A program made the translations under genes and the position numbers. The notes beneath the pieces were generated by a model, which had not been told where the DNA came from, did not search any database, and saw only the letters and a program-made list of their open reading frames with translations. Below, in pieces: positions 1-16,931 of a DNA stretch of 18,425 nt (within the stretch, counting starts at the first letter, position 1; each line of letters starts with the position of its first letter). The stretch lies in the NCBI GenBank assembly GCA_043739185.1, contig JAYUEN010000131.1, positions 1 to 18,425 on the forward strand, given 5' to 3'. Origin of the DNA: Bdellovibrionales bacterium (GTDB lineage Bacteria > Bdellovibrionota > Bdellovibrionia > Bdellovibrionales > JAMPXM01).

Positions 1-59
1 TCAATAGACTGACAGAGGACAGGGGGAACTTTTGCATTCAATGAGAGCAAGCTGCGGTC

Positions 60-1196
60 TCATTGACTTCTGAAAAGGTGAAAGCCTGAATAAAACCAAG
101 TACTATCTTGCGTGCTCATCGCCTTTGATTCTTTTTCCAAATACGAAAGTTCTGGTAATTTTGCCAAGCGAGGAACAAAGAGGGTCCAATAGGCGAGTAT
201 TCCACCTTTATGAAGCCGCTTGGCAATTTGTGAAAATAAAGACTGACTTTCTTCATCGCTTAAGTATTCAAAAATATCAGATAAATTCATAAAATCAAAA
301 GCGCTTGAACTGGTTTGTAAAAATTCTTCTAAAGAAGCTCTGAGGAAAGTAAGGCGATTGGGATTTTGGCGCAAGCTTGCTTGAATTTTTAAGTATTTTG
401 CTTCAACCCAAAGTGGATGTGAGGATTCATTCAGTAGCGGGCCACCACTTAAAAAATTAAAAAGATAGGGGTTCTTTGAAATGAGCTGCTTGCCAATCAA
501 ACTCATAAAATTCTTCATAAATTTTGAGCCTAAATCTTCTTGTTCGACAAACTTAAACTGTGATTCATGGCGACCTTGACGGGAAAACTCTGAGCGTGAG
601 AAAAATTGTCCTACTAGATTTGCGAGCGTACTCAAATCGGCTTGAGAAAATATTCTGAATTGCTCAGCAAGTGAGTCGGTATGTAACATTTTTAAATAGG
701 CCTCAGTGCTCCACAAAGACTTTAGTTTTTGGCGAAACTTTACAAAATAGAGGTCCAATCTACCTTGATAATGTAGCCCACCTTGAATGATTTTTTCTTT
801 TGAATCCCAAAAGTTTAAAGTCTCTCGACTGAGCGAAGACCGTATTTTCTGATATTGATTTAGGGCTTTTCGTTCGTCATATGCAAACATCAATTGTAAA
901 AAATCTTGGTGATTCAGGAGTTTGATGGCTTTAAGTTTGAGTTCAATCAAAGCAATTTGAGCAAAACTCAAATCAATTACGCAAATTTCTTCAGCGTCAG
1001 TTAAAAGGAGCGAAATGGCATTGTCGCCCGCACTTCCGATGCTTAATATTCGATTGGCAGAAGCAGGGTTCGGGGTTGAATTCTTTGGTAATAGGGCAAG
1101 CCCTGAAAAAATTTGTCTATAATCTTCCCATACAAATGAGTATCGCAGCTCTTGTAGATCCCAGGTTTCAAGTAAGGGTGATTTTTGTATTTCCAT
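60..1196 (-). CDS. DUF3419/BtaA-like SAM-dependent 3-amino-3-carboxypropyl transferase
   Basis: 378-aa ORF with family-type motifs: N-terminal 'YSFVWED', SAM-binding 'LSIGSAGDNA' and 'IDLSFAQIALIELK', 'NPY', 'FDFMNLSDIFEYL' and 'GGILAYW'. Assignment is by motif recognition. Confidence 0.85.
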   Translation of the reverse strand: MEIQKSPLLETWDLQELRYSFVWEDYRQIFSGLALLPKNSTPNPASANRILSIGSAGDNAISLLLTDAEEICVIDLSFAQIALIELKLKAIKLLNHQDFLQLMFAYDERKALNQYQKIRSSLSRETLNFWDSKEKIIQGGLHYQGRLDLYFVKFRQKLKSLWSTEAYLKMLHTDSLAEQFRIFSQADLSTLANLVGQFFSRSEFSRQGRHESQFKFVEQEDLGSKFMKNFMSLIGKQLISKNPYLFNFLSGGPLLNESSHPLWVEAKYLKIQASLRQNPNRLTFLRASLEEFLQTSSSAFDFMNLSDIFEYLSDEESQSLFSQIAKRLHKGGILAYWTLFVPRLAKLPELSYLEKESKAMSTQDSTWFYSGFHLFRSQ

Positions 1197-1343
1197 ACTT
1201 GAAAATTAGCACAATGTTCTAGACTAGACTTTGATAAATTTCTGCTCAAGAAAAATCCAGTCAAAGGTCTAGAAGCCTTATCAAATGAAGCTATGTTAGC
1301 ATCGCAAGGATAGGCTTTTGACTAGTCCATTGCATCTCATGAG

Positions 1344-3791
1344 ATGGCAGAGCAGGGGAGGAAAGTTTTGTTCAATTTTTCTAAAATCAAATCACCCGAA
1401 GCCATTGAGACGAAAGCCAATACTAAAACCAAAGCGAGGCATATATTAAAACGCTCAGTATATACTGAGATCGCCAGGCAACAACGCCTTGATCAACTTG
1501 AAAACTACGGAAGCTCTATGAGCGAAATAAGGAGTATGCGCCTTGATCCAACGGAGTTAAGAGGCAATATTGAATGTCTCATTGGCGCAGTCGAAATTCC
1601 CTTAGGCGCGGCCGGCCCACTTCTTCTGCGCGGTACAAATGGTGAGCGCGAAGCCTTTGCGCCAATTGCCACAACTGAAGGCGCGCTTTTGTCTTCAATC
1701 AATCGTGGTTGTCATGCACTCGGAATGTCCGGTGGAGTTTTTTCGCGCGCGCTCAAGCAACGTATGCAGCGTTCTCCGTTCTTTGATTGTGGCAACGCTG
1801 AACAATCTCTCATTCTCAAAAATTGGATATTACAAAGACAAAATCAAATTAAACTTAAGGCGAGACAATTTTCAAGTCATGCGATTTTACTTGAGGTCGA
1901 TTGCAGACTGATTCCGCCTTGTCTGCATATTCGGTTTGTATTTGAAACTGGCGATGCTTCTGGGCAAAATATGACAACTCTCTGCACTTGGAACCTCTGC
2001 AACTGGATCATCTCAGAGTTTTCAAAACAATACCCAAAGCTCATCAAGCACTTTTTAATTGACGGCAATCTCAGTACGGATAAAAAGCACTCCTATATTT
2101 CAGCTATTGTAGGCCGTGGGGTCGAAGTCATTGCCGATGCTCTTGTGCCTGAGTCCGTCATCAATAGAGTATTGGGATCAAACTCTGAAGATATAGCGCG
2201 CTATTTCTCGCAGTGCCAATCGAGTGCCGTTTTGACAGGTACTCACGGTTTTAATATCAATGTGGCAAATGTTATTGCAGGAATTTTCACAGCGACGGGG
2301 CAAGACATCGCATGCATTCATGAATCCAGTACGGCACAGTTGCACTTTGAAAAACGACCCGAAGGATTGTATTTGAGTTTGCTCCTGCCAAATCTTGTGA
2401 TTGGCACAGTTGGCGGTGGGACCGGATTACCTGCACAAAAGCAAATGCTAGAGTTTATGAATTGCCAAGGTGCCGGGCAAATTCAAAATTTTGCAGAATG
2501 CATTGCCGGCTTTTGTTTAGCACTCGAACTCTCGACAGCTTCGGCTTTGGCCGGCGGACAATTTGCCCTGGCTCATGAAAGATTGGGTCGAAATCGAGTC
2601 GAGCATTGGCTTAAAAAATCTGATTTGACAGCTAGTTTTTTTAATCATTTTTTAGCGCCCGACGAAGAATTGGGTCAAGTACTAGAAGCTTACGCAGATG
2701 AGGAATATCAATGCGAAGGCAGTTTAATAATGGATTTAACCTCTCAAATCAGTAAGCGTCCCTGCGGCCTTTGGCCCTTTGTGCTTCGCCGTTCGCGTTC
2801 GCAAAAGCCACAGAAGATTTTCTTAAAATCGAAAGTCTCTGACAAAGAATTATTGTTGGCTCTTGAGGTGATGGCAGGAATGAGTTCTCCGGGACTTGCT
2901 GAATTGCTTAAGAGTTCACAAAAGGACAATCCCTTTCAGCAATTTCATATTCGTGAAATTGAAATTGCTGAAATGCAAGTTCCGGCCCTGAAAAAAATAA
3001 TGCCAAAAACTCTCGGGACCGTAAATAATTCAAAACTTAGCACCTATATTATCGCGCAAGAATTTTTGCAGGGCTTAGAGCTTTTTGGCGCTGTCGAAAA
3101 GCGAGATCTCTGGAGTGACGAATATATTTCGACTGCGATTCAAAATATCAGTGGTGTGCATGCCCATTTTCTAAATCGATTTGAGAATATTGCCAGCCAG
3201 CCATGGATTCTAAGAATGAATCTCGATAGAGCCCAACGCTTAAGTGAAGTTTATTTAGAGCTTGCAAGGAATCTCCATCGGGTGGCATTTGATTGGTTTT
3301 CAGTTGATGATTTGGTTTTTCATGAGTCCAATTTGCCGTTTCAAATTGCGATGTGGTCTGAAATTGAAGCTATGCCTCAGACGCTAGTACACAATGATTT
3401 CAATCCTCGAAATTTGGCCTTTCGAAGAAATAATTCGCGACTTGAACTGGTAGCTTATGATTGGGAGCTTGCGAGCATTCACTTGCCGCAAAGAGACCTT
3501 GTAGAATTACTCGCTTTTTGTCTTGAACCCGAAGTGAATGACCAGAAAATTTTGCAATGGCTGAGCTTTCATAGAAAGCAACTAGAGGCGCAGTCAGGTG
3601 AAAAATTAGATGAGAAGCTATGGTTAAAGGGATGTCGATTCGCAGTCTATGATTTGCTTTTATGTCGGTTTCCTATTTATTCGATTGCCGAGAGCCTTCG
3701 GCACATGAGCTTTCTTAAGCCAAGCTATAAAATGGCGAAGAGAATTCTACATGTTTTAGATCAAGAATTAAATTCGCTTCTTAAAAATTAA
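1344..3791 (+). CDS. Class I HMG-CoA reductase-like domain fused to a C-terminal APH/choline-kinase-family phosphotransferase
   Basis: The N-terminal ~420 aa carry the HMGR motifs 'NIECLIG', 'PIATTEGALLSS' (catalytic Glu), 'TGDASGQNM', cis-loop 'GNLSTDKK' (Lys), 'ATGQDIA' (Asp), 'GTVGGGT' and 'AHERLGR' (His). The C-terminal part has the kinase motifs 'HNDFNPRN' (nt 3390-3413) and 'YDWE'. It is one uninterrupted 815-aa frame. Confidence 0.9.
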   Translation: MAEQGRKVLFNFSKIKSPEAIETKANTKTKARHILKRSVYTEIARQQRLDQLENYGSSMSEIRSMRLDPTELRGNIECLIGAVEIPLGAAGPLLLRGTNGEREAFAPIATTEGALLSSINRGCHALGMSGGVFSRALKQRMQRSPFFDCGNAEQSLILKNWILQRQNQIKLKARQFSSHAILLEVDCRLIPPCLHIRFVFETGDASGQNMTTLCTWNLCNWIISEFSKQYPKLIKHFLIDGNLSTDKKHSYISAIVGRGVEVIADALVPESVINRVLGSNSEDIARYFSQCQSSAVLTGTHGFNINVANVIAGIFTATGQDIACIHESSTAQLHFEKRPEGLYLSLLLPNLVIGTVGGGTGLPAQKQMLEFMNCQGAGQIQNFAECIAGFCLALELSTASALAGGQFALAHERLGRNRVEHWLKKSDLTASFFNHFLAPDEELGQVLEAYADEEYQCEGSLIMDLTSQISKRPCGLWPFVLRRSRSQKPQKIFLKSKVSDKELLLALEVMAGMSSPGLAELLKSSQKDNPFQQFHIREIEIAEMQVPALKKIMPKTLGTVNNSKLSTYIIAQEFLQGLELFGAVEKRDLWSDEYISTAIQNISGVHAHFLNRFENIASQPWILRMNLDRAQRLSEVYLELARNLHRVAFDWFSVDDLVFHESNLPFQIAMWSEIEAMPQTLVHNDFNPRNLAFRRNNSRLELVAYDWELASIHLPQRDLVELLAFCLEPEVNDQKILQWLSFHRKQLEAQSGEKLDEKLWLKGCRFAVYDLLLCRFPIYSIAESLRHMSFLKPSYKMAKRILHVLDQELNSLLKN

Positions 3792-3812
3792 AAAACGATT
3801 GGGAGATTGCCA

Positions 3813-6461
3813 GTGTTATTGATTCCACTAAAAAATTCTTTGAAAATGGCTTCGCCTCAGAGTTGTGGAGGGAAAGCATATCAATTGATTGAGCTCGCGC
3901 GGCGCGGATATTTGGTGCCGGCCTTTTGTATTTTAGAGACTGAAACTATTGCTGAGCGTTTGAACAATACTTTAGAGAGGAACTCTGTTTTAAAATGGCT
4001 GCCGGGTGATCCTGAAGAGATTCAAGGATGGATGGAGCAACAACGGCAATTTGGGTTTCGAAATTTTATTGTGAGATCTTCAATGTGTGGAGAGGACAGC
4101 AAGGAAATGTCCTTCGCTGGTCAACTAGAATCCTTTTCAAATTTGACCCAAATTCAAGACGTCATCGAGGCAATTGAAAAATGTGTTTTGAGTTCTCAGA
4201 GTTTGAGGCTCAAATCCTATCTCAATGCCAAAGGCATTGAGAGTAATAGCTGGAAGCCACAAGTAGCGGTGATCTTGCAGGTCATGATCGAAGCCGATGT
4301 GGCCGGAGTACTTTTTAGTGCTGATCCCAGAGACGGCAATCGCAGGAGGTTTTTAATTTCTTCAAACTACGGGGCCTGCGAAGCCGTGGTTGGCGGACTT
4401 TACGATTGTGATGAATTTAGCGTTGATCCCATTGATAATACTTATACAAGTAAGATTGTGGCGAAAGAGTCGGAACTTAAATTTGCCGAAATTGGTCTCG
4501 CTTCGCAAAAAGTAGAGACTTCAAAAATTCATAAATCTTCTTTGAATTTTGAGCAGATTTCACGGCTTGTAAAGATCGGAAAGGAGCTCACTTGCTGGCA
4601 AGATTCATATGTCGATGTTGAGTGGGTCATCAAAGGAGATAAAATTTGGATTGTGCAAATGCGACCCGTTACCGGGTTAGGACCTGATCGGTCTGAGCAG
4701 AAAGAATATGTATTTGATAACTCAAATATTCAAGAGAGCTTCAATGGACTCACTCTGCCGCTTACCTTTAGCTATGCAAAGCAAATTTATTTTCATGTTT
4801 ATCGTCAAATTATGCAGGTAATGGGTTTTAGCCAAGAGGTCATTGCCAGCCAAGATGTCAGACATCAACAGATGTTGGGATTGATTCAAGGTAGAGTCTA
4901 TTACAATATCAATAGTTGGTACGCCGGGCTTTTGTTTCTTCCCAACTTTGGTCGCAATAAAAAAGATATGGAACAAATGATGGGGCTTGAAACCCCTGTC
5001 GATTTTATCTTGGATCTAAAACTTAGTAAAATGCAAAAGCTACAACGATTGCCAGAGATGATCAGGCTCATGACCAAACTCAGTTGGGAATTTTTTCGCA
5101 TTGATTCAAGAGTAAAAAAGTTTCGACTGGATTTTCAAAAGACTGTGGCGAAAGTTCGAATCGAGAATCTGCGTTGGCTCAGCGCCTATCAATTATTTGA
5201 GCTCCACGAGAAAACCAAAAATAAAATTCTCAATAATTGGTATGCGCCAATTCTCAATGACTTTTATGTCATGATGCTCTCGGGGAGGGTTCGCAGATCA
5301 CTCGAAAAGATTGGATGCGTAAATTTGTTGCCTGATTTGCTGGTGGGTATTGAATTAGAGAGTATCAGGCCCACTGAAAGCCTCATCGATATTGTTGAAG
5401 AGCTTCGGCTTGTGCCTGAGCAGCAGGCAAAGACTTTAACGCACCTCCTTTGCAATGTGGATGAAAAGTTTTGGCGTGAACTCGAAAATTTTCCGAAGTC
5501 TCAAAGTAAAGTCGAGACATTTATTTCTCTATACGGGGACAGGGTGGCTGGTGAGCTCAAGCTTGAAACGCTAAGTTTGCGTCAAGATCGAAGCTTTATG
5601 CTTCGAATTTTAAAAAGCTATTTTTTTGATGCCAACGTAACGCTTAAAAACTTTAAAATCAGACAAAAAGAATTGCGTGAAAAAGCTGAAGTCGAGGTAT
5701 TCACTTCTTTGCAAAATCAGCGAGGTCGCCTTTCGCTTCTTTTATTCAAGGCCCAGCTCAAAAATTTTCGCAGGGCCGTTGCTTATCGTGAAGCCATGAG
5801 ACTCGATCGCACCCGTTCGTTTGGACTATTTCGATCTCTTAACTTAGCTATAGGCGAACGACTTTTTGAAATGGGTGAATTGCAAAATGCGCGTGATATT
5901 TTTTATCTCAAATGCGACGAAATTGACGATTTCTTACACCGTAAGGCAGTCTTTGAAAATCTTTTAGAATTGGTTGAGACTCGCAAGAAACAATATCAAA
6001 GTTGGTCAGAACTAAAACCTAGTCCGCAAATTAAAAGTTTTGGCAATAAAATTCAAAAACAAGCTCAAACCGCATTGAGCTCAGAACTAGTCCTAAAGGG
6101 CCAAGCGTGTTTTCCTGGCATCGTAGAGGCCCGGGTGGTTGTCTTAACTTCGCCAAATGAAAATATAGATTTAAAAGGAAAAATTTTAGTAACTGAAAGA
6201 ACAGATCCTGGCTGGACACCGCTATTTCTACAATTGTCAGGATTACTCGTTGAGCGCGGCTCGCTATTGTCACATTCAGCTGTTGTCGCACGTGAATTAG
6301 GAATTCCAACAATTGTTGGTTTGAAAAATATTTGCCAATTGCTCAAGACAGATGATTTGGTTCACTTTGATGCTTCGACTGGTGAAGTGAGGCTTTTGCA
6401 ATCCAAAGATCAAGCATATCAAAAATCAGAAATAAGACATAAGCAAGAGCTTGAAGTTTGA
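3813..6461 (+). CDS. PEP-synthase/rifampin-phosphotransferase (RPH)-architecture dikinase (ATP-grasp, substrate domain, C-terminal His swivel)
   Basis: ATP-grasp motifs 'GGKA', 'VRSS', 'ED..SFAGQ', 'AGVLFSADP', 'DVEW' and 'QMRPVT'. Central domain begins 'DNSNIQESFNGLTLPLTFS'. C-terminal 'TDPGWTPLF...GSLLSHSAVVARELGIP' holds the phospho-His. GTG at 3813 lies 7 nt after GGGAG (3801-3805), so it is preferred to the track's TTG at 3807. Confidence 0.9.
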   Translation: MLLIPLKNSLKMASPQSCGGKAYQLIELARRGYLVPAFCILETETIAERLNNTLERNSVLKWLPGDPEEIQGWMEQQRQFGFRNFIVRSSMCGEDSKEMSFAGQLESFSNLTQIQDVIEAIEKCVLSSQSLRLKSYLNAKGIESNSWKPQVAVILQVMIEADVAGVLFSADPRDGNRRRFLISSNYGACEAVVGGLYDCDEFSVDPIDNTYTSKIVAKESELKFAEIGLASQKVETSKIHKSSLNFEQISRLVKIGKELTCWQDSYVDVEWVIKGDKIWIVQMRPVTGLGPDRSEQKEYVFDNSNIQESFNGLTLPLTFSYAKQIYFHVYRQIMQVMGFSQEVIASQDVRHQQMLGLIQGRVYYNINSWYAGLLFLPNFGRNKKDMEQMMGLETPVDFILDLKLSKMQKLQRLPEMIRLMTKLSWEFFRIDSRVKKFRLDFQKTVAKVRIENLRWLSAYQLFELHEKTKNKILNNWYAPILNDFYVMMLSGRVRRSLEKIGCVNLLPDLLVGIELESIRPTESLIDIVEELRLVPEQQAKTLTHLLCNVDEKFWRELENFPKSQSKVETFISLYGDRVAGELKLETLSLRQDRSFMLRILKSYFFDANVTLKNFKIRQKELREKAEVEVFTSLQNQRGRLSLLLFKAQLKNFRRAVAYREAMRLDRTRSFGLFRSLNLAIGERLFEMGELQNARDIFYLKCDEIDDFLHRKAVFENLLELVETRKKQYQSWSELKPSPQIKSFGNKIQKQAQTALSSELVLKGQACFPGIVEARVVVLTSPNENIDLKGKILVTERTDPGWTPLFLQLSGLLVERGSLLSHSAVVARELGIPTIVGLKNICQLLKTDDLVHFDASTGEVRLLQSKDQAYQKSEIRHKQELEV

Positions 6462-6475
6462 GGGAGGCGATTTAA

Positions 6476-7486
6476 GTGGAAATACTCAATGAAAAAAACC
6501 TGACTCGAAATAATTTACGACCGAAGTCGCAGAGTTTGCAAAGTTTAAATGCGCAAGCTTTAACACGGACGTTTTCACTCGATGATATGGATTGGACCAA
6601 AAAAGTAGATCACAGCATCTCTTGGATGCCAGAGTCGATGCTTGCACTCACATTTCTTTCTTCTTATCGACTATTGAACAGTGATCAAAAATTAGCGATT
6701 AATCAGAAATATGCGCTTGCGATTTGTGAGCAATTCATTTGGTTTGAACAGGAATTATTATGCAGAGTAATTGCCCGCCTCATGCCGAAACTTCAAGATC
6801 AGACGCTTAAAAAGTGTCTTGAAAACTTCGCCAATGAAGAAACTAGGCATTCAGAGCTCTTTGGTAAATTGTTAAACCTAGCTGATCCTGAAACCTATAA
6901 AACTTCTCACATTGAAAGTCGTGACTTTAACTATTTTAAATTGAGTCTTGGGAGTAAATTATTTTTTGAAGCTCTCATTCGGTTTCCAAACTTATTTTTA
7001 GTTTGGGTGTGGCTTGCTATTTTTTTTGAAGAAAAGACGATTCATTTTAGCCAAATGTACAAAAAGTGCCAAGATAATATGGGCCATTCAAATGTAGATG
7101 CCCAGTTTGCAAAGGCCCATGCCCTACACATGATTGATGAAAGCCGACATCTTCAAATTGACCAATATTTATTAAAAGCTTTTTATGAGCCTAAATTCTT
7201 TTGGCAAAAAAGACTTTGCGCCAAACTTACACAATTGATTTTCAGGGCTTATAAATCACCGCGAAGAATTGCCAAGCGAATTTTAATAAAATTAGCTAAA
7301 GAACAAGCTGAGCATCAGCTTGTATACAAAAAACTTATCAATGAATTGCCAACTTTAAGAAAAAATCAGGCCTATCAGGAAGCAACCTATAGTCGCCAAG
7401 TAATGGGACGAACCTTGGGTAGTCTTGAACTCTATCCAGAAATGAACTGCGCATTGAAGGAACTTTCTCCTTCAATACGCAATTGA
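6476..7486 (+). CDS. AurF/CmlI-like ferritin-fold diiron oxygenase
   Basis: Diiron ligand pattern 'WFEQ...NEETRH...FFEEK...HMIDESRH', including the extra His of HxxDExRH. N-terminal 'DMDW..WMPE' motif. GTG start with GGAGG upstream, 14 nt after the previous stop. Confidence 0.8.
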   Translation: MEILNEKNLTRNNLRPKSQSLQSLNAQALTRTFSLDDMDWTKKVDHSISWMPESMLALTFLSSYRLLNSDQKLAINQKYALAICEQFIWFEQELLCRVIARLMPKLQDQTLKKCLENFANEETRHSELFGKLLNLADPETYKTSHIESRDFNYFKLSLGSKLFFEALIRFPNLFLVWVWLAIFFEEKTIHFSQMYKKCQDNMGHSNVDAQFAKAHALHMIDESRHLQIDQYLLKAFYEPKFFWQKRLCAKLTQLIFRAYKSPRRIAKRILIKLAKEQAEHQLVYKKLINELPTLRKNQAYQEATYSRQVMGRTLGSLELYPEMNCALKELSPSIRN

Positions 7487-7494
7487 AAGTCATA

Positions 7495-9219
7495 TTACAT
7501 CATCATCATCGAGAGAGGAATTCCGAGCATAAAGCCGCCCCAAGACTGCGACAGGATTCTTGAAATACGCTCAATAGACTTTGAGTCGTCGCTTACTCCG
7601 TCAAAGTATTTTGCATAGATTGCTTGTTGCCAATGCTCCGGGCGGCCCCTTCTGTAGTTGCGGTAAGATGCAATGCCACCTTCAACCGCTTTTGTTTCGT
7701 GAGTGCTTTCTTGATTGCAATAGGTGGGCAAAAAATCTTGAAGGTTCGCAGGCGGATCCGTATACAGACGTTTTAAGTGAACTACTAATTTTTCACTATT
7801 AATAACGGCACTGAAAATCTCTCCGTTTTCGATCTCTTTTGCGGCTTGATTTGATTTGTCAATTGTTGGGGGACTAATACCAACTGTTCCAAAGGCATTT
7901 CCAAATCCGGTATTCAATATTCGAGCAAAAGGAGCTACCGCTCTCGGATCAAATAAATTTTCTTGAAGATCGGTTTCGTTTTGGTGATCTCTGAGTGCTA
8001 CCCAAGAGAAATAGGCATTTTGAACCGATGTTTTCAAACTTTCATAACTATTTGATAAATAGCTATTTAATTTATCTTTACCAATTTCAGTTTTAAGACG
8101 AAAGAGATCTGGATGGGCTTTAATGGCATTGTATCTTTGTTCAGAGGTTGCATAGTCTGTTGAGAATGCGGCTTGAAAGCCGTAGACCGATGAAATTTTA
8201 TCGATACTATCAAACAGCCCTCTGAAGCTAAAGGCTTCCATTCCGTAGAGTCCACTCATAGATGCTTGTATGCTAGAAAGCAGCATAAATCTTTCGGATT
8301 CACCAATGCGAACCAAGCGGTCACGACTCGAAGTGAAATTGGCGCTACCATAAAGAATTTGGTTGTCCATAAAAACAGGTTTAGTTGAAAAATTCATGCT
8401 TGAAACGGTATCGTTAAATACGATCAATTGCGGAAGTACTTCCGCGCGCAACCAAGCTTGAAAAGTTGGGCCATCGACCATATCGCATCGACCTTTAATC
8501 CACTTTTTCGTATCCGATTTTTTAGAAGTAGATGGGAGTTCGCACCCATTGTCTTGATTTTTATAATAAGGCTCGACCATGAAATTAAATGCGGCCTTCC
8601 ATTGGGGAGTGGGAAGATAAACTTCAATTCCTGCGGCCATAAATCTCAAAATGGATACCGCCCATGCATGGGCCGCAATCGTTCTCTTATTACCGGCTTC
8701 AAAAATATTTCGCGATCGATAAATAAATCCGCGAAAAGGTTTGAGCATTAAGAGTTGAACAGCTAATAGCTTTGCATCTGGAGTCGCATCAAATTTACCG
8801 CTTTTAAATTCTTTTTCGAGATCATTGAGCAAATTGAAAATTTCTTCTGAGCTTTTTGCTCCAGGGATATCAGCCATTTTTTTACCATCTTTATATACTG
8901 AGCCGCCGATAAACGAACTTTCAATATTTCGAAAATTCTCGGTCAGTACGGTGTTCGGATCGCGGTCCGTGCTTGCAATGCTTCGCTCCGAATATTTTTT
9001 TGCACTTGCCAGTTCCTCTTTGTATCCGTCTGAGGAATAGCCACCTTTGAAGGTCGGCGCGTCCTCCATTTGGACTTCAAATTCAAGAGGTGCTTTTTTA
9101 GTTGCAGCAATAGCGGGGTTCACATTGATTAGTAATCCCGCTACTGCACAAGTTGCACAGGTCAAAATGTTTTTGTACCACAAATTGCGCTGCCAAGAGT
9201 TTCGCAGATTAGGCTTCAT
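7495..9219 (-). CDS. Hypothetical secreted protein (~574 aa)
   Basis: Long open frame. ATG at 9219 is preceded by GGGGAG and followed by a signal-peptide-like segment (…AVAGLLINVNPAIA-A). The track start at 9390 overlaps the divergent gene and is unlikely. Hydrophobic C-terminus 'WGGFMLGIPLSMMMM'. No family recognised. Confidence 0.75.
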   Translation of the reverse strand: MKPNLRNSWQRNLWYKNILTCATCAVAGLLINVNPAIAATKKAPLEFEVQMEDAPTFKGGYSSDGYKEELASAKKYSERSIASTDRDPNTVLTENFRNIESSFIGGSVYKDGKKMADIPGAKSSEEIFNLLNDLEKEFKSGKFDATPDAKLLAVQLLMLKPFRGFIYRSRNIFEAGNKRTIAAHAWAVSILRFMAAGIEVYLPTPQWKAAFNFMVEPYYKNQDNGCELPSTSKKSDTKKWIKGRCDMVDGPTFQAWLRAEVLPQLIVFNDTVSSMNFSTKPVFMDNQILYGSANFTSSRDRLVRIGESERFMLLSSIQASMSGLYGMEAFSFRGLFDSIDKISSVYGFQAAFSTDYATSEQRYNAIKAHPDLFRLKTEIGKDKLNSYLSNSYESLKTSVQNAYFSWVALRDHQNETDLQENLFDPRAVAPFARILNTGFGNAFGTVGISPPTIDKSNQAAKEIENGEIFSAVINSEKLVVHLKRLYTDPPANLQDFLPTYCNQESTHETKAVEGGIASYRNYRRGRPEHWQQAIYAKYFDGVSDDSKSIERISRILSQSWGGFMLGIPLSMMMM

Positions 9220-9351
9220 GAGTTTCTCCCCATTTATTTGAAAAATTTTGTTTAGATGCGACCACATTATCTTAATAGAAAAACCAATTGCGCGTCTATT
9301 GAAGAATAGAATAGACTGGCATTTTATTCTTGGGGAAAGTCTATTAAACAT

Positions 9352-11544
9352 TTGCAGCGTTTCAGTCTCATTTGCGTCAAACTGATTCATAAATACTTAA
9401 GATGCGGTCATCTTTTTGCAATTCGCCATCCTCGTTGGACTTTGGTCTTGCTGGGTATTGTATTAAGCATTTCATGTATGCTGTTGCCGCGAATGCATAT
9501 GCTAATGAGTATTGATGATTTGGTTGATAAGGATTTTAAAACCTATCAACAACTCAAAGAACTTAAGAAAAACTTTTTTGATCAAGATGAGATTTTTATT
9601 GTTATTCGACGAAAGGACCAGACTCGTCTTAACAAAGCAGAGCTTTGCACCAGTCTCAAATGGGTCAATGATTTAGCTGATTCTCGCTCGGACGTAAAAG
9701 CTATTGTCTCGACATTTGGGCTAATGTGGCCCACGGAAACACAAACGCATTTCAAAGTTTCCCCAATACTAAATATCAATTGTGCTGATCGCGTTTCTTC
9801 TGAATCTGAAGCAATTGATCAAGCCTTTATGAAAATTATGAAAAGCCCGTGGGTCGGAGCCCTCACTGCAAAAGATGGATCAGATATCGGTATTCTCATT
9901 TATCCTTCGAATAATTCAAGAAAAAAATCATTCTTCGGAAGTTTCAATGCAAAAATGGTTGATGAATTGCAAGCCGACTTTGAAAACTCTGTACAGAAAG
10001 TTCATCCAGAATTAATCGGTATTTGGGTTGGTGACGGAATATTTCAGTATCATTTGCATAAAGGCTATGAGTCTATGCCACTTTTAAATGGCCTCATGAG
10101 TCTGGTAATTGTCTTTTTGTTTCGACTTCTCATGGGTAGCTTTATCAGCAGTTTTATTTTTTTACAGTTGGTCACCTGGGTTTCTCTTTTGGTTTATGGT
10201 GGCATGGCGTATTTTGGTCATCCGATAGATGTTCTCTCGAGCTCCCTTTCTCTGATGTTTTTCGTAAGTTCTCTTGAAGATTTTGTCTTGCTTTCGCATT
10301 TTATGAAGAAGTGGTCTTGGCGAAGGGCGTTTTCGCGTGTGCTTTTACCGAGCTTCTTTACCTCATTGACCACCATGATAGGTTTTGGCTCTCTAGCCTT
10401 TGCCGACTTGGGAATTGTCAGGCGATTTGGAATTTGGTCCGCAGTCGGAGCGCTCGTTGAATGGATCGTGCTTTTTATATTTTTACCTGCACTGATGCAA
10501 AGTTTTAGTAAATTGCGAATCTGGACAAATCCAAAAAAATCTTTAGACCTCAGTCAAACTTGGCTCATCGGCTTTCGCCCCAAAAAAATCTTTGCACTGG
10601 TCTCACTCTTAGTCATTCCTTTTGCTCTTTTTTCTTTTTCGCATTTAGAAGTTTCGGATTCTCCAGAGAGATTATTGCCCCCCTCTCATCCTGCGCGCCG
10701 GGGGCTAGATATGATCGAGCAGACGCGCGGCTGGCGGAGTCAATTGAGTCTGGTTTTTGCAGAACATGATCAAACTCAATTTAATAAAAGCGTTATCGAA
10801 AAGATAAAAGCCGATCCTCTAGTAAGTCACAGTGAAGATGTCTATGCAGTAAAAGATTTTATGACATCGCAGTTGAGTTCTGAAATGCAGAATTGGCTCA
10901 ATTCTTTTATTGAAGGCAATGCCATTGGCCACCGCCTTGGACCTAGCGGTGAGCAAACGAGAGCAATTCTCTATGTCAAAAATCTTGATATCTCAGATAT
11001 TAAAAGCCTTCGGCTCAAGGTAAACGCACTTTGTCCCAAACAAGAGTGTTGGTTGGCCGGAAGCTTAGTCTCCTACGGAGAACTCGGCGAGCGCGTTCTA
11101 TCAACTCTTTATGAAAGTCTTGGTTTGAGTCTTTTTCTGGTTTTATTTATTTTGCTCTGGCTTTGTTTGGCACTGCGACCTGAAGCTTTTTGGAGTTTGG
11201 CACTTTCAAGTATATGGGGGCCCTGTGCTTTGCTGGTTTGTTTTTATATTTTTAAGTTTCGCGTCTTTTATATTACAAGTATGATTGCTTCAATCATTGT
11301 TGGACTCGCTGGCGACAATGCAATTCAATTTTTATTCTATTCAAAGCGCGGACATCAAATGCAAAAGAGCGTAAGCTTTGTCGGCCCGGCAGTTCTTGCC
11401 ATTTCAATTTGTATGATGATGGCGTCAAGTGTCTTTTTTGCCGGATACTTTGATCCAATGAAAAATCTAGGTGGCCTGATGATTTTAGGAATTTTCTTAG
11501 GCTATGTTGGTGATGTTTGGATACTTCGAGGCCTAAGTAAATAG
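9352..11544 (+). CDS. MMPL/RND-family exporter
   Basis: 730 aa with two repeats of (1 TM + soluble loop + about 5 TM). Motifs 'FTSLTTMIGFGSL', 'RRFG' and 'GLAGDNAIQF'. TTG start is uncertain. Confidence 0.85.
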   Translation: MQRFSLICVKLIHKYLRCGHLFAIRHPRWTLVLLGIVLSISCMLLPRMHMLMSIDDLVDKDFKTYQQLKELKKNFFDQDEIFIVIRRKDQTRLNKAELCTSLKWVNDLADSRSDVKAIVSTFGLMWPTETQTHFKVSPILNINCADRVSSESEAIDQAFMKIMKSPWVGALTAKDGSDIGILIYPSNNSRKKSFFGSFNAKMVDELQADFENSVQKVHPELIGIWVGDGIFQYHLHKGYESMPLLNGLMSLVIVFLFRLLMGSFISSFIFLQLVTWVSLLVYGGMAYFGHPIDVLSSSLSLMFFVSSLEDFVLLSHFMKKWSWRRAFSRVLLPSFFTSLTTMIGFGSLAFADLGIVRRFGIWSAVGALVEWIVLFIFLPALMQSFSKLRIWTNPKKSLDLSQTWLIGFRPKKIFALVSLLVIPFALFSFSHLEVSDSPERLLPPSHPARRGLDMIEQTRGWRSQLSLVFAEHDQTQFNKSVIEKIKADPLVSHSEDVYAVKDFMTSQLSSEMQNWLNSFIEGNAIGHRLGPSGEQTRAILYVKNLDISDIKSLRLKVNALCPKQECWLAGSLVSYGELGERVLSTLYESLGLSLFLVLFILLWLCLALRPEAFWSLALSSIWGPCALLVCFYIFKFRVFYITSMIASIIVGLAGDNAIQFLFYSKRGHQMQKSVSFVGPAVLAISICMMMASSVFFAGYFDPMKNLGGLMILGIFLGYVGDVWILRGLSK

Positions 11545-11559
11545 ACTAGCGGAGATTTT

Positions 11560-12492
11560 GTGTATTTTTTAATATTTTTATTTTTAATATTTATAGTTGG
11601 TCTTATTTGGTTTTTAAGGCCAACGCCCGCAAGTCAATCGGAAATAAAAGAATTCCTTATTTACCCTGAAGTAAGCTCTCACTTTAAAAGTTTTCGCGAT
11701 CTCGAAATTCATTACGATCAAGTTGGGAAGGGCAGAGATATCGTGCTCCTGCATGGTATTGGAGCATCGACTTTTATTTGGCGTTCCTTGATGCCTTTGC
11801 TGGCGCGAAATTTTCGAGTCACAGCGATCGATTTGCCGGGACACGGTCGCTCTGAAAAAAATCTTAAATTCAATTATGATCTTGAAAATGTCAGCGTATA
11901 CTTACTTGATTTTATCGATTCAATAGTGATCAAAGACTATATGCTGATCGGTAGCTCAATGGGAGCTCTCATCGCGCTTTGGATGCTAAAGACGCGCCCA
12001 AAAAATATTTCGGAAGTTATTTGTATATCACCGCCAACAGATCATAGTCTTATCAAGTTTTACAGACCACTTTTACCCCTGCTTTTACCTCTTCATTTTT
12101 TTATCAATCGCATAAGCATGAAGGTGGCAGTGCATAGAGCTATCAATCGGTCTGAGCTCGTAACTCGTGATGTGGTAAACGCCTATATGCTTCCATTTCG
12201 TGATCGTGGAGAGGCCTGGCAATGTTTTTTAAAATCAGTAAATATTTTGGCTCATCCTGAAATTCCAGAAGCCTTAAAACACCTCAATAAAAATGACAAA
12301 TTGAGACTTAAAATTATTCACGGTCTATCAGATAAGGTTGTGCCCAAAAGCATTCCTTTAGAGTTAAAAAAAATGCTTCCGAATGCTGAAATTGAATTTA
12401 TCGAAAATGCCGGGCACCACGCCTTCGAAGATCATCCAGAATTGATTTATGAATCTATTTTGAAATTTGTAAATCCAAAAGAGGAAAAATAG
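11560..12492 (+). CDS. Alpha/beta-fold hydrolase with N-terminal membrane anchor
   Basis: 'LLHGIG' oxyanion motif, 'DLPGHGRS', nucleophile 'GSSMG', acid 'HGLSDKVV' and His 'AGHHAFED'. GTG start after GGAG, 15 nt downstream of the MMPL gene, so probably co-transcribed. Confidence 0.9.
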   Translation: MYFLIFLFLIFIVGLIWFLRPTPASQSEIKEFLIYPEVSSHFKSFRDLEIHYDQVGKGRDIVLLHGIGASTFIWRSLMPLLARNFRVTAIDLPGHGRSEKNLKFNYDLENVSVYLLDFIDSIVIKDYMLIGSSMGALIALWMLKTRPKNISEVICISPPTDHSLIKFYRPLLPLLLPLHFFINRISMKVAVHRAINRSELVTRDVVNAYMLPFRDRGEAWQCFLKSVNILAHPEIPEALKHLNKNDKLRLKIIHGLSDKVVPKSIPLELKKMLPNAEIEFIENAGHHAFEDHPELIYESILKFVNPKEEK

Positions 12493-12532
12493 ATCTGACT
12501 TTCATTATAGCTTTTATTCTTTCCGTATTTGC

Positions 12533-12613
12533 TTGGCAAAATGTTGAAAGCTTCAGGGCCGGGCAATCGGCCTACGGTTAACGGCAGCTGAGGCCCGAGA
12601 ACGAAACTGCCAA
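12533..12613 (+). ncRNA. Candidate structured intergenic RNA (family unassigned)
   Basis: GC-rich patch in an AT-rich spacer with nested helices: ttggca/tgccaa, gcttcag/ctgaggc, and ggccgg-GCAA-tcggcc (GNRA tetraloop). Confidence 0.25.
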
Positions 12614-12796
12614 ACAGTGTATCAATTGGAGACAATGTAATTTTTGAAATTTCAAAAAACTGCAATATGGCGTTTCAGGTGTCAAGTCTTCATTCGTACT
12701 TAAGCTTTCTTCTTAATTTTGAGCACTTAGGTGGGCATGAACGCTGCAATAAATATTGATAATACAATATGAGAGCTAAATAGAAATCAACTCATA

Positions 12797-13975
12797 ATGA
12801 GACAGGTTTTTGAGATGAAAAAAGTGAATGCGAAATATTTTTTAAATTCAAATAAGCAGCATTTAGCCAGAGGACATTTTTTTACAATAATGTTTTTTTC
12901 ATTTCTCATATTTCAAAATTGTGCGCAAATCAATTTCAGTCCAAGCATAAATAAGCTCCAGGGTATTGGGCAGATCTTACCCGATGGGACGGTTCTTGAT
13001 GCCTATATTCAAAGTCCACCTCAAGTGAACAACAAATTAGACATTTTATTTATGGTCAACTCTTCGGCTTCATTGCAAGCCGTGATCCCGAGTATCGTGC
13101 AAGGAATTAGCTCTTTTGTTGGTGAGCTCCCAAATAATTCAGATTTTCAAATCTCAGTCATTCCTTCGCATTCGCCCCGGTCAGTTGCTACCAGTGGGGT
13201 GCTTTTTGGAGCAAATGGAGTGGCGGTTCTGAGCTCGAGCACTTTAGCATTAGCAGATATGCAGACGAATCTCACCGCGACCTTTTCAAGTCTCCCAAGT
13301 GCAAGTGTCAGTGATGAGGGTACAGAAGAAGAAGGATTGGCTTCTATATTTACATCTATTGATTCTGGTCATTTACAGCAAAATCGAAGTCACGGATTTT
13401 TTCGCAGTGATTCTTCACTTGCTGTTGTCTTTATAGCAAACGAGGCCGATGTTTGCGGTGAGCCAGATAGTAATCCCATGACTGACTCGGATTGGTCAGC
13501 AGCAAAAGCTACTCAAGTTTTAGATTGCCAAGCGCCATTGATTGATGCGAATTCAGTTTTGGCAAGTCTCAGAAATTTGCAGGGCGATCGACCTTTACTT
13601 GTTTCAGGAGTTTTATATCCCAGTAAGTCCCAGCAAGCAGGGTCAAATGAAAAAGAATATGGTTGGGGTTATGTCGAAACTGTAATGGCGGCCAATGGCT
13701 GTATGGACCCTACGACTTGCGAAGCTATTATCGATATGAATTTAGATTCAGCGGGTGTGAAAAATGGTCTTTCAGCAATCGGAAATTTAATGCAACATAA
13801 ATTCAACTTCGTATACGATTTCAATTTAAGTCACGAGCCTAAGTCTGTTAGTTGCATTCATATCAAAGTAGATGGTCAAGACTCACAGTTTGAGTACAAT
13901 GCCGCACTTAATTCTGTGCATATCGATCACCCCGGTGTCTCGGGCTCGCAAATTTCAATAAATTATTGCATTTAG
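12797..13975 (+). CDS. vWA-domain-like predicted lipoprotein
   Basis: Lipobox-like 'FLIFQNC', vWA beta1 'KLDILFMVNSSAS' and 'GFFRSDSSLAVVFIANEAD', with a small C-terminal beta domain. The start could alternatively be the ATG of MKKV. Confidence 0.7.
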   Translation: MRQVFEMKKVNAKYFLNSNKQHLARGHFFTIMFFSFLIFQNCAQINFSPSINKLQGIGQILPDGTVLDAYIQSPPQVNNKLDILFMVNSSASLQAVIPSIVQGISSFVGELPNNSDFQISVIPSHSPRSVATSGVLFGANGVAVLSSSTLALADMQTNLTATFSSLPSASVSDEGTEEEGLASIFTSIDSGHLQQNRSHGFFRSDSSLAVVFIANEADVCGEPDSNPMTDSDWSAAKATQVLDCQAPLIDANSVLASLRNLQGDRPLLVSGVLYPSKSQQAGSNEKEYGWGYVETVMAANGCMDPTTCEAIIDMNLDSAGVKNGLSAIGNLMQHKFNFVYDFNLSHEPKSVSCIHIKVDGQDSQFEYNAALNSVHIDHPGVSGSQISINYCI

Positions 13976-13986
13976 AAATTAATAGT

Positions 13987-15936
13987 TTAATTGTTTTCAA
14001 CTCTAGCCTCGCCAACAACATCAGGAAAATAAGTAACTTTCGCATTGATCAAATGCCCAGCCGGAAGCCCTGTGCCGAGTTCCTCTGCGCGCAAAATATT
14101 TTCAGGCAAATTTAAGGATTTGCGAAGCTCATTCATGGTTTGCGGAACAAAAGGGGTAAGCAAAATCATTAAATTTTTAAGTACATAAAAGCAGGTGAAC
14201 AAGGCATCTCTTCGTTCAGCCTCAGGCGCGCGATCATCATGTGGCTTAAATTGCGAAAATAGAGAATTAATTTGGCGCCCATAGTTTTCAATTTGACCCA
14301 AAAGCGTTGAGTAATCACCTTTTTGCATCGAGCGAAGATACAACTGTACGAGCTTTAAGGTTTCAACTTCGGCTTTACCGATTAGCTTTCCTTCCGGAAC
14401 TTTTGAATCAAATTTTGAATGACAGGCTGAGATGGGTTTTTCAAATACGGCATTCATGGGGCCTGCTAAGAATTTATTCCGCTCAGCAAAATGTGTAAAA
14501 TCAAAATTCGATGCTTTCACGGGGAGACTCAACATTGCTAAATAATATCGAACTTGATCAGGTGAAAAGCCCATCTCAAGCAATTGGTCTCCGGTATAGA
14601 AGTTGCCTTTTGACTTACTCATTTTCTCGCCGTTCACCATTAGGTGAAAGACGCTTAAGATTTCTGTCATTTGCAGATCACCCTTCACTGGCAACTGCTG
14701 TAAATCATTTTTTTGTCCCAACCACATCGATCCCTGCATGATCACATAAAAGAAAACATTATCTTGACCTAAAAACTGCACGACGGTCGCTTCCGGATCA
14801 CACCAAAATTCTTTGTATTGTTCTGACTTACGCCCAGACTTCTCAAGTGCCACTTGGGTAAATACAATTGGGGCAATAAGCGAGTCGGGCCAAACATAAA
14901 GAGTTTTGCCCTTCATATCCGGGTCAAGCTCTGGCGGAACCGGAATGCCCCAGGACACATCTCGAGTGATTGGGCGATAGCCCCATTTATCTGTGGTATG
15001 TGATTGAATTCCCGCCGACTCAAGAGTTGATTGCGCTTTTACAAGATCGGCTTTGGTATCAAACAGGCATTCTACTTTTTTCCCGGGGACATATCGTGAT
15101 TTGTGTTTTGGTAGAGTGTCTTTGATTTCTTTGTATTTGTCTTCAAATTGATTTTCAAAGCGGCAACCAATCAAAACGGTATTGATCACTTCTTGCACGA
15201 CGGCTGAGCGCCAGGCCTTTTGCTTGGTTTCAATCCAGGCCTTTAAGGGGTCCGCAACCTTCCACATATTAAGCCACCAATGAGCGGTATCTTTCAATTC
15301 TGGTTTGGCATCACTCAGCTGACTGCGTGGATCTTTTAACTGACTCGGATCAAATTGCGTTCCACACGAATCACACTCATCTGAATAGGCTTCAGAATTT
15401 TGGCAGTTCGGGCAAGTCCCGCGTACAAAGCGATCTTGCAAAAAGCGCTTCATTTTTGGATCAAACCACTGCTTGGTGATGCGCTTTTCTAAAAGTCCAT
15501 TTTTAAAAAGACGGCGTAAAAAATCTTGCGAATACTTTTCGTGATACGCATAAGTTTCAGGGCGAGAGGTACCGGTAAAGACATCAGTTTGAATCGAATA
15601 GTTTTTCAAAGTCAGTTTTTGAGCTTCATGAATAGTATCGATAAATTCACGGATCGACTTACCGGCTTTTACTGCAGCGACCTCACTTGTTGAACCGTGA
15701 TCATCATTTCCGTTCACAAACAAGACATTTTCAGCGCCAATTAACATTCGCATCCAACGAGCGTAAATATCAGCAGGGACGTGGGCCCCGGCGAGGTGAC
15801 CCAAATGCAAGGGGCCATTCGCATAGGGCATACCCGCGGTCACAACAACTTTTTTGGGTTTTTTGAATTGTGCCAGTGCGGACTTCACATCCGTTGGTGG
15901 CGAATACTTATTTTCTGTTTTTGCACTTTGAGACAT
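13987..15936 (-). CDS. metG: Methionine--tRNA ligase (divergent, no C-terminal tRNA-binding appendix)
   Basis: 'PYANGPLHLGH' (HIGH), 'KMSKS', zinc knuckle 'DRFVRGTCPNC…ECDSCG', 'ITRDVSWGIPVP' and 'LYVWPD'. ATG at 15936 is preceded by GGAGG, giving 649 aa. Confidence 0.88.
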   Translation of the reverse strand: MSQSAKTENKYSPPTDVKSALAQFKKPKKVVVTAGMPYANGPLHLGHLAGAHVPADIYARWMRMLIGAENVLFVNGNDDHGSTSEVAAVKAGKSIREFIDTIHEAQKLTLKNYSIQTDVFTGTSRPETYAYHEKYSQDFLRRLFKNGLLEKRITKQWFDPKMKRFLQDRFVRGTCPNCQNSEAYSDECDSCGTQFDPSQLKDPRSQLSDAKPELKDTAHWWLNMWKVADPLKAWIETKQKAWRSAVVQEVINTVLIGCRFENQFEDKYKEIKDTLPKHKSRYVPGKKVECLFDTKADLVKAQSTLESAGIQSHTTDKWGYRPITRDVSWGIPVPPELDPDMKGKTLYVWPDSLIAPIVFTQVALEKSGRKSEQYKEFWCDPEATVVQFLGQDNVFFYVIMQGSMWLGQKNDLQQLPVKGDLQMTEILSVFHLMVNGEKMSKSKGNFYTGDQLLEMGFSPDQVRYYLAMLSLPVKASNFDFTHFAERNKFLAGPMNAVFEKPISACHSKFDSKVPEGKLIGKAEVETLKLVQLYLRSMQKGDYSTLLGQIENYGRQINSLFSQFKPHDDRAPEAERRDALFTCFYVLKNLMILLTPFVPQTMNELRKSLNLPENILRAEELGTGLPAGHLINAKVTYFPDVVGEARVENN

Positions 15937-16316
15937 AGCGGGCCTCCAAAGATATAACTTTAACGAAATTGTTGAGCTAATGCACTCTTTTTGCTTCTTG
16001 AGCATTCAACAAAATTTAATTTCTTGCAAAACTTGGTATTGGAGGTCGGCCTGGGAAGCATTTCGCTGGCAACTCTTATAGCTGAGAGGGACTCATGGTG
16101 TGAAGGCCAAAATGAGAGCCTTATTGGGGCCTCCAAGGGCTTGATTTTTAGGTTTTAGAATACAAGAAAATGAAGTTCTGGGCAAATACTCATCTTAAGG
16201 ATCGGCGTACAAAACCAATTCAAGATAGACGTTAGGCAAAAGCATTTCGTCTAAAGCAAAAGTCACTCGAGATATTGAATGAACTAATTTTGATTGTGCG
16301 AATGCCAACGTCTCAA

Positions 16317-16772
16317 TTATTGAGAGGCAAGGCCTTTTAAAATGTTTCTCAGATATTGGTCGCCGCAATTTCGGTAATTGCGATGATCCGCTTTGCGAAA
16401 AAAAGCGCTGAGTTCTGATTTGGTGATTTTCAAATGACTGGTTTTTTCAATCAAGCTCATTAAATCAATGTCTTTGAGTTCAAAAGCCACGCGAATTTTT
16501 TTTAAAACAATATTGTTCGTCATAGGTGTTTCAATGGGTTGAGGAGTACGGCCCTCAAGATTTTTTCGCTTATAAACAATGAGACCGTTTAAAAAATAAG
16601 CCATGACTTCATCAGGACAAAGCTCGTAGCCCAAATCATCTTCATTCTTTAGATATGAAATCATCTCATCTAAAGTTACCAAATACCCCGCCGACTCAAT
16701 AATTTCTACGAGGACTTTTTCGTTAACATTGAGGATATAGCGAATACTTTGGAGTACATCATTGGTCTGCAT
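16317..16772 (-). CDS. DUF1456 (YehS) family protein
   Basis: Typical duplicated motifs 'TNDVLQSIRYIL' and 'NNIVLKKIRVAF', plus 'KSELSAFFRK.DHRNYRNCGDQYLRNILKGL'. Start set at the ATG of MQTND (151 aa) rather than the track's 16889. Confidence 0.9.
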   Translation of the reverse strand: MQTNDVLQSIRYILNVNEKVLVEIIESAGYLVTLDEMISYLKNEDDLGYELCPDEVMAYFLNGLIVYKRKNLEGRTPQPIETPMTNNIVLKKIRVAFELKDIDLMSLIEKTSHLKITKSELSAFFRKADHRNYRNCGDQYLRNILKGLASQ

Positions 16773-16931
16773 CGGCTTGAAATACCACGCAGGTTTAAGC
16801 GATGCTATCAGAATTGTGAGACTCTTCTCTATAAGGGCGCGCTCTTGATCGCGCAACTGCGATTTCAGGCTTGCCTTGCCGGGCCTCAAGAGCGATGTTA
16901 AAGGGCTTACCGTTTAGCAGTGTGAGGAAAT

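Follow-up and report, generated by a model that had tools for sequence, protein, structure and literature searches.

The window analysed here is one entire contig of 18,425 bases from a Bdellovibrionales bacterium (assembly GCA_043739185.1; host genome 97.65% complete). Its central element is a gene at positions 1344–3791 on the plus strand, one uninterrupted frame of 815 codons that holds both a reductase domain with the fold of HMGR, the reductase of 3-hydroxy-3-methylglutaryl-CoA (HMG-CoA), and a phosphotransferase domain of the APH/choline-kinase type. This fusion gene is followed by genes for a dikinase and an AurF-like protein and is faced by a BtaA-like gene, with genes for a protein of no known family and an MMPL-type transporter nearby. 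Pfam placed HMG-CoA_red at residues 45–416 (1476–2591, plus strand; E 2.9e-95) and APH at residues 628–743 (E 1.4e-6, above the cut-off), and the kinase-fold half as a whole spans about residues 425–815 (2616–3788, plus strand). The catalytic residues of the reductase domain are, by alignment, E112, K247, D321 and H411, and its NAD(P) motif reads DASGQN (204–209); the best solved relatives of the fusion are class I HMGRs (6hr7, E 4.7e-70). In the kinase half, a beta3 lysine (K495), a helix-C glutamate (E538), HNDFNPRN (residues 683–690; 3390–3413, plus strand) and DWE (residues 706–708; 3459–3467, plus strand) are all in place, and together with the bilobed fold they make up the hallmarks of the APH/choline-kinase superfamily (beta3 Lys, helix-C Glu, HxDxxxxN, DxE). 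The original prediction, made from the letters of the window, had described just such an in-frame fusion, and the reading frame, Pfam and the catalytic motifs confirmed it.

A model of the whole protein (monomer, ligand-free) had a mean predicted local distance difference test score (pLDDT) of 87.1; a short linker at 415–419 is of low confidence. The kinase half, modelled by AlphaFold at pLDDT 95.5, displayed the APH/choline-kinase fold along its entire length. The top match in a fold search with the kinase half had Z 19.6 and a root-mean-square deviation of 4.0 over 288 aligned residues; corramycin phosphotransferase (Z 19.6), choline kinase (18.3) and homoserine kinase (18.0) were matched at identities of 8–17%. 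Several APH-fold enzymes, choline kinases among them, reach a similar Z, and the Choline_kinase family of Pfam did not match the query. Among the matches listed by Foldseek for the whole protein were HMGRs alone, and Pfam detected no GHMP fold or motif in the fusion frame, the GHMP genes of this genome lying on other contigs.

A stop or frameshift between the two domains was looked for and none was found. Contigs of sequencing runs X1 and X2, possibly the source of the assembly, cover 1–7600 with 0 differences and 0 gaps, and a contig of X4 crosses the domain junction (2524–2861) with 0 differences; no listed piece of X3 lies over the junction. Bridging was thus seen in three of four runs, on contigs only and with all four runs belonging to one study. 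A search with the kinase half found 894 proteins among 7715 candidates, and the HMGR domain is also present in all 119 other homologs among the matches listed. HxDxxxxN was found by regular expression in 96 of 101 fused proteins, three of the five misses being in loci that end inside the gene. The indel-free bridging contigs and the recurring architecture rule out a frameshift or misassembly at the junction, and the HMGR-fold/kinase fusion is genuine. A domain scan and a distribution survey, both proposed in the original prediction, confirmed the two domains and showed that the fusion recurs in a patchy manner: it occurs in 2 of 35 genomes of the family, in none of three others of the genus and in 16 of 401 of the phylum, and its closest named relative in the genome collection (49% identity) is from a Bdellovibrionales metagenome-assembled genome (MAG). 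The fusion gene is accessory. Scans for promoters and terminators gave chance-level matches only.

Reductase pocket, FcrA and the mevalonate route

FcrA is an HMGR homolog that reduces acyl-CoA of at least 14 carbons with NADPH and leaves HMG-CoA unreduced; it was assayed within the group that holds haloarchaeal second HMGR copies, and activity was shown for the enzyme of Ca. Promineifilum breve (Pb-FcrA) only (Grossi et al. 2025, PMC11948995). Its marks are an acidic residue for Ser684, the loss of a lysine and a bulky residue for Leu862 (PMC11948995). The lysine, printed there as Lys795, corresponds to Lys735, as the 51-residue spacing fits, and Lys735 forms a salt bridge with the HMG carboxylate (PMC9500038); pocket residues and the DAMGMN motif of HMGR are listed in PMC3875450. 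The main text of PMC11948995 does not contain the words kinase or phosphotransferase, and its Fig. 4B depicts fused domains.

Pocket columns were set by alignment to human, Arabidopsis and Methanothermococcus HMGR, whose structures carry S, K and L/H at 684, 735 and 862 (human numbering throughout). In the fusion, Ser684 is replaced by the acidic D240 (2061–2063, plus strand), Lys735 by C291 (2214–2216, plus strand), with loss of the carboxylate salt bridge, and Leu862 by the bulky aromatic F407 (2562–2564, plus strand); His752 corresponds to N306. These replacements are the three FcrA marks, and the HMG carboxylate pocket formed by Ser684 and Lys735 is not conserved. Among 99 fused domains, which form 83 clusters at 90% and 68 at 70% identity, position 684 is E or D in all, Lys735 is found in none and position 752 is always N. 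The counterparts of catalytic Glu559, Lys691, Asp767 and His866 are kept in all 99, and R590 and D690 are likewise invariant. All three marks were found in 99 of 99 fused domains, in 17 of 17 copies from operons with a polyprenol-type kinase (described below) and in two of two Vibrio copies, and in none of three canonical controls (two haloarchaeal HMGRs and one HMGR of a Streptomyces mevalonate operon), all of which retain S, K and H at 684, 735 and 752. TIGR00533 was the best NCBIfam match of the query yet remained below the cut-off (269.8 against 441.8 bits). The label 'class I HMG-CoA reductase' is not supported. The unusual motif DASGQN had also been pointed out at the outset; the motif is present, yet it does not stand as the key or diagnostic change, because the Streptomyces mevalonate-operon HMGR reads DASGHN.

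In a tree of 202 domains, which has weak deeper nodes and does not include Pb-FcrA itself, the fused clade (support 0.95, including 10 unfused or truncated members) is sister (support 1.0) to a stand-alone clade with the haloarchaeal second HMGR copies, and some of these adjoin a wax ester synthase. The fusion shares with FcrA of Ca. P. breve and Natronomonas pharaonis (PMC11948995) the class I HMGR fold, the catalytic four and the three marks, and both sister clades are independent of the mevalonate pathway. Unlike FcrA, it has a C-terminal APH kinase, no N-terminal Lad extension, N at 752 and F instead of W at 862, and its neighbours are dikinase, UbiA, CarS-like and BtaA genes; a wax ester synthase was not found in the host by tblastn, nor by Pfam, where no control matched and the result is weak. 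On these sequence features we concluded that the reductase domain is most likely of the FcrA type and not a canonical HMG-CoA reductase. By analogy with FcrA, it very probably converts acyl-CoA or acyl-ACP (acyl carrier protein) to the alcohol. This first step would be a four-electron reduction of the fatty acyl thioester to a primary alcohol, probably with NADPH, as suggested by the family marks and demonstrated for the sister-clade enzyme only. Of the two options in the original prediction, a pair acting on a non-HMG acyl substrate is thereby favoured, the HMG-carboxylate pocket being remodelled as in FcrA.

The other option, a non-GHMP mevalonate kinase joined to a true HMG-CoA reductase, we consider very improbable. 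All catalytic residues as well as R590, D690 and K692 are retained, TIGR00533 is the best NCBIfam match even if under its cut-off, and neighbours or fusion partners with the nucleoside-monophosphate (NMP) kinase fold could serve as phosphomevalonate kinase. Against this stand the absence of Lys735 and the acidic residue at 684 in every fused domain, the failure of assayed FcrA with the same marks to reduce HMG-CoA (PMC11948995), and the occurrence of the same kinase after fatty-acyl thioester reductases. The host moreover has a mevalonate operon of its own on a separate contig (G000:C398, L001:5623–10859), with genes that we interpret from their translations as type 2 IDI-like, class II HMGR and GHMP genes; this was seen when the choice between MEP and mevalonate pathways was checked, as had been proposed, and the host assembly gave no match to DXR. 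The operon lacks HMG-CoA synthase, which was not matched elsewhere in the host assembly either, so that HMG-CoA may derive from leucine breakdown. All five of five fusion-bearing relatives in the phylum likewise possess a second HMGR together with GHMP genes. Among 44 other fusion hosts, many of them incomplete MAGs and with two unfused genomes excluded, 25 matched DXR only, 15 mevalonate-diphosphate decarboxylase only, one both and three neither; HMG-CoA synthase was matched in 4 of the 44 and in none of the 25 DXR-only hosts. GHMP kinase and HMG-CoA synthase families had no match among 84 scanned neighbours. An alternative mevalonate route was dismissed on the host's own operon, the DXR-only hosts and the pocket changes, and the fusion is not part of isoprenoid synthesis.

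Some stand-alone relatives were noted alongside. Vibrio 'HMG-CoA reductases' (L085:5866–7128 of V. fluvialis; L086 of V. aquimaris) carry all three FcrA marks and group with a copy from a Brevibacillus lipid operon (support 1.0), so that they are probably fatty acyl reductases left without an operon. Stand-alone FcrA-type genes with an N-terminal extension often adjoin an ABC1/UbiB atypical kinase (11 loci, e.g. L056, L058, L066, L067, L071 and L077), a third kind of kinase tied to FcrA-type reductases. On a Sinorhizobium meliloti plasmid (L088:3420–9628), a divergent HMGR-like gene is surrounded by genes for acyl-CoA carboxylase, biotin carboxylase and MmgE/PrpD; the usual cis-loop is missing from its product, whose substrate may be a carboxylated acyl-CoA.

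Exchange of the reductase and of the kinase

Among the 150 best kinase relatives at the 50% level, the kinase domain follows a thioester reductase (R) in 58 and an HMGR fold in 47, and 45 have no second domain; two of the latter that were looked up are likely fragments. Custom profiles detected ACP or FAAL-ACP (FAAL, fatty acyl-AMP ligase) in 10 of the 58 thioester-reductase-type proteins. NAD_binding_4 was confirmed by Pfam in all 20 that were checked and ACP in 11 of 16, and TIGR01746 scored above its cut-off in three of three. One relative is a FAAL-ACP-R-kinase protein (P0141) and another a FAAL-ACP-HMGR-kinase protein (P0212). FAAL-R-kinase genes occur in 3 of 351 Myxococcota genomes, beside CarS-like, dikinase and UbiA genes, and the methyltransferase and acyltransferase of one such operon (L222) have homologs in 11 HMGR-fused loci (53–62% and 25–36% identity). 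Searches of the phyla of G078 and G042, 221 genomes each, gave no further thioester-reductase-type loci (one HMGR-type match in the latter), and none of full length was found on plasmids. In the kinase tree, the R type forms one clade nested among HMGR types (midpoint rooting; one change), indicating a single swap of the reductase. Three-domain fusions of a thymidylate-kinase-like domain, a reductase and an APH kinase were also observed (P0186, P0251 and L117:914–4045); they fit a sequence from alcohol to monophosphate to diphosphate within one chain.

The kinase has been exchanged as well. Sixteen loci without an APH domain are ordered HMGR-like, UbiA, dikinase, BtaA, protein X, GNAT and ligase, and the same gene order in Brevibacillus laterosporus brings these polyprenol-type-kinase operons to 17. 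Protein X is a membrane protein to which the Atlas assigns the names diacylglycerol/polyprenol kinase or phytol kinase (score 0.96–0.98); Pfam, NCBIfam and the PDB returned no informative match, and we take it to be a polyprenol kinase from the Atlas names and from its motifs. It is carried by none of 103 loci with the APH kinase, and 11 core loci have neither, most of which end early and three of which are of the CdsA type.

Both swaps are those expected of a pair in which a reductase is followed by an alcohol kinase. They make it likely that the fused kinase converts the alcohol to an alkyl phosphate, so that the proposal in the original prediction, phosphorylation of the alcohol released by the reductase, is supported as probable. 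In this second step, the C-terminal APH-fold domain would phosphorylate the fatty alcohol with ATP. Taken together, the sequence evidence points with reasonable probability to a two-step enzyme that converts an acyl thioester via a fatty alcohol to a long-chain alkyl phosphate and feeds an accessory lipid cluster.

Several points weigh against this interpretation. The activities assigned to either step are predictions for every fused protein. The residues that touch HMG in true HMGRs (R590, D690 and K692) are still present in the fused domains, and the query is only 35–39% identical to the stand-alone FcrA-type group and differs from it by the invariant N at 752; chain length or substituents may hence differ from those of FcrA. 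No particular kinase family was favoured by the fold search. Since the reductase swap is one evolutionary event, the 58 proteins are not 58 tests, and the kinase substrate could have shifted along with the reductase. P0212 is a single sequence on one contig, and the 17 polyprenol-kinase operons amount to 8 clusters at 70% identity. The unfused CdsA loci L157, L160 and L171 have no kinase in view, and two of these loci extend no further than the dikinase. In the host assembly, the UbiA, GNAT and CarS-like partners were not found, which is indistinguishable from an assembly gap, the contig ending 59 bases past the BtaA gene; a search for a polyprenol kinase gave one weak profile match (31 bits), where a CdsA-like query also matches.

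Gene neighbourhood and candidate lipid pathway

The genes around the fusion recur in related clusters. The one facing it (60–1196, minus strand) encodes a divergent DUF3419/BtaA-like S-adenosylmethionine-dependent aminocarboxypropyl transferase and is a recurring cluster member. Directly downstream lies the most constant partner, a swivelling-His dikinase of the RPH/PigC type (3807–6461, plus strand; PPDK_N plus PEP-utilizer, His823), then a gene for an AurF-like diiron protein (6476–7486, plus strand), which in related clusters follows a FAAL or FAAL-ACP gene. An MMPL/RND-type lipid transporter (9352–11544, plus strand) is again a recurring member. The product of 7495–9390 (minus strand; true start probably later than the called one) matches no Pfam or NCBIfam family and has homologs only inside this cluster, at four loci (L092, L172, L199 and L203), where they adjoin MMPL or AurF genes; it is a candidate export or carrier partner.

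Neighbours were tallied in the 50 fused loci flanked by 6 kb or more in both directions; the loci are partly redundant, and the profiles miss divergent UbiA genes. The counts are dikinase 35, UbiA 28, CarS-like 27, AMP ligase 22, CDP-alcohol transferase 18, GNAT 18, MMPL 11 and BtaA 7. CarS-like or CDP-transfer genes are present in 31 of the 50. A single-contig relative (G479, locus L199) combines ligase, UbiA, GNAT, MMPL, the protein of no known family, BtaA, fusion, dikinase, FAAL-ACP and AurF genes; other variants have CarS-like, archaetidylserine-synthase-like and phosphatidylserine decarboxylase genes, or thymidylate-kinase-like and nucleotidyltransferase genes. All matches of related clusters to archaeal lipid families are below the curated cut-offs. 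Pfam and the Atlas name the cluster GNAT (L161:16517–17527 and homologs) as GNAT only; by motifs we presume a resemblance to bacterial ceramide synthase/YghO-type acyltransferases. In an actinobacterial variant (L033, L036, L038, L039, L083 and L115), a GH3 ligase and a thymidylate-kinase-like gene accompany the fusion, with DUF6182 in at least L036 and sometimes a FAAL nearby. Cultured hosts of the cluster are Kosakonia sacchari SP1, Zooshikella sp. RANM57 and Marinicrinis sediminis.

The later steps can be assigned with less confidence. The RPH-type dikinase, or a P-loop NMP kinase in some clusters, might add a second phosphate or activate a partner, a UbiA-family transferase might link the chain to an acceptor, the head group might come from CarS-like together with CDP-alcohol transferases or from BtaA with a GNAT, and MMPL might export the product. 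A more specific and tentative version, which we consider possible though doubtful, is an ether-lipid route with archaeal logic on fatty chains: the dikinase would convert the alkyl phosphate to an alkyl diphosphate, UbiA would attach the chain to a glycerol backbone through an ether bond, and serine/ethanolamine or homoserine head groups would be added by CarS-like or BtaA enzymes. Because allylic diphosphates are what UbiA enzymes ionise, a saturated alkyl donor would be unusual. An AurF-like or desaturase partner might provide an allylic chain, or the alkyl phosphate might serve as the acceptor; a lipid phosphate is the acceptor of decaprenyl-phosphate phosphoribosyltransferase.

The frequency of CarS-like or CDP-transfer genes also bears on a different order of events, in which the reductase makes a fatty alcohol and the kinase comes in at a later stage, on a glycerol- or amide-lipid (mono- or dialkylglycerol, diacylglycerol or a ceramide-like lipid), supplying a phosphate monoester to the CarS-like enzyme. 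The replacing family is named 'diacylglycerol/polyprenol kinase' and so does not single out free alcohols, and the unfused CdsA-type loci lack a kinase in view. We nevertheless regard a late-acting kinase as unlikely. Wherever the second domain was recognised (105 of the 150 top relatives), it is a thioester reductase, of two unrelated folds and always upstream of the kinase; the kinase is soluble and the glycerolipid intermediates would be membrane-bound; and clusters of the BtaA type, including this one, are often without CarS.

The export genes and ligases raise another alternative, that the acyl unit is short, hydroxylated, aminated or branched and the product a secreted phosphorylated metabolite or lipopeptide-like compound instead of a membrane lipid. 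It would accommodate the retained R590, D690 and K692 and the uniform N at 752, the partner ligase being closest to PRK09274/OleC-type enzymes, the Streptomyces copies beside GH3 and thymidylate-kinase-like genes, the common MMPL and LolA-like export genes, and the patchy distribution. FAAL-ACP fusions and the desaturase, acyltransferase, phosphatidylserine decarboxylase and archaetidylserine-synthase-like neighbours (the desaturase being one for fatty acids) indicate long acyl chains and phospholipids instead; this alternative seems rather improbable, somewhat more so than a late-acting kinase.

The preferred reading, a fatty acyl reductase joined to a fatty alcohol kinase, resembles several known systems in part. 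Class I HMGR (human 1dq8, Methanothermococcus 6hr7) acting with a GHMP kinase has the same reductase fold, tetrad, cis-loop DKK and reduce-then-phosphorylate order; the fusion differs by its remodelled carboxylate pocket, its APH-fold kinase and the lack of HMG-CoA synthase, decarboxylase and isomerase nearby. FAAL-ACP-thioester reductase modules (CAR/MxcG-type R domains; the myxobacterial elb ether-lipid cluster) activate a fatty acid and reduce it to the alcohol, and in relatives the same kinase is fused to FAAL-ACP-R modules, whereas the fusion here has an HMGR-fold reductase. We know of no kinase step after the alcohol in the elb and AGPS routes. In plant phytol salvage, VTE5, VTE6 and UbiA-family transferases lead from alcohol to phosphate to diphosphate to the UbiA reaction, a logic that matches the proposed cluster order. 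The kinase shares its fold, catalytic motifs and hydroxyl substrates with the APH/choline/ethanolamine kinase superfamily (25-hydroxysteroid kinase 9fsg, choline kinases); it nevertheless stands as a family of its own, which almost always occurs linked to a thioester reductase. With the archaeal polar lipid line (digeranylgeranylglyceryl phosphate (DGGGP) synthase/UbiA, CarS, archaetidylserine synthase and decarboxylase; PMC9385802, where the UbiA and CarS steps are reviewed), the related clusters have in common UbiA, CarS-like and archaetidylserine-synthase-like genes and, in one, a phosphatidylserine decarboxylase. They differ in that the chain seemingly comes from a fatty acid, and neither geranylgeranylglyceryl phosphate (GGGP) synthase nor prenyl-diphosphate synthase was found among the 84 scanned neighbours, the genomes not having been searched for them. 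Bacteria are known to make ether lipids by way of AGPS, the elb cluster and PlsA/Ger (PMC13159169), PMC7852524 treats bacterial homologs of DGGGP synthase, and the HMGR and UbiA passages of the lipocone paper concern other operons. A literature search found no description of the cluster in print, a weak result as the search also missed the FcrA paper. By its sequence the reductase belongs with FcrA, and the kinase fusion and its pathway appear to be uncharacterised.

These assignments correct a common annotation, since hundreds of bacterial fusion proteins labelled 'HMG-CoA reductase' probably have no part in isoprenoid synthesis. A testable reaction, that of a fatty alcohol kinase, can be proposed for an uncharacterised family of soluble kinases, and the role of FcrA in bacteria without wax esters, a question raised in the FcrA paper, receives a concrete candidate answer. 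Should alkyl diphosphates and UbiA indeed yield ether lipids, this would be a new route across the archaeal/bacterial lipid divide with bearing on the sources of alkyl ether lipids; AGPS, elb and Ger/PlsA would be joined by another way of making the ether bond, shared by aerobic and anaerobic members of many phyla.

At the left end of the window, just past the BtaA-like gene, an ATG-started frame (1–38, minus strand) runs off the contig; contigs of X1 and X2 stop at the same base, and one contig of X3 extends beyond it. At the other side, 11560–17742 encodes an alpha/beta hydrolase, for which related loci gave no homolog at E 1e-15, a 392-residue protein of no family, a methionyl-tRNA synthetase-like protein, a DUF1456 protein and a nucleotidyltransferase substrate-binding (HEPN-like) protein, and these genes are apparently unrelated to the cluster.

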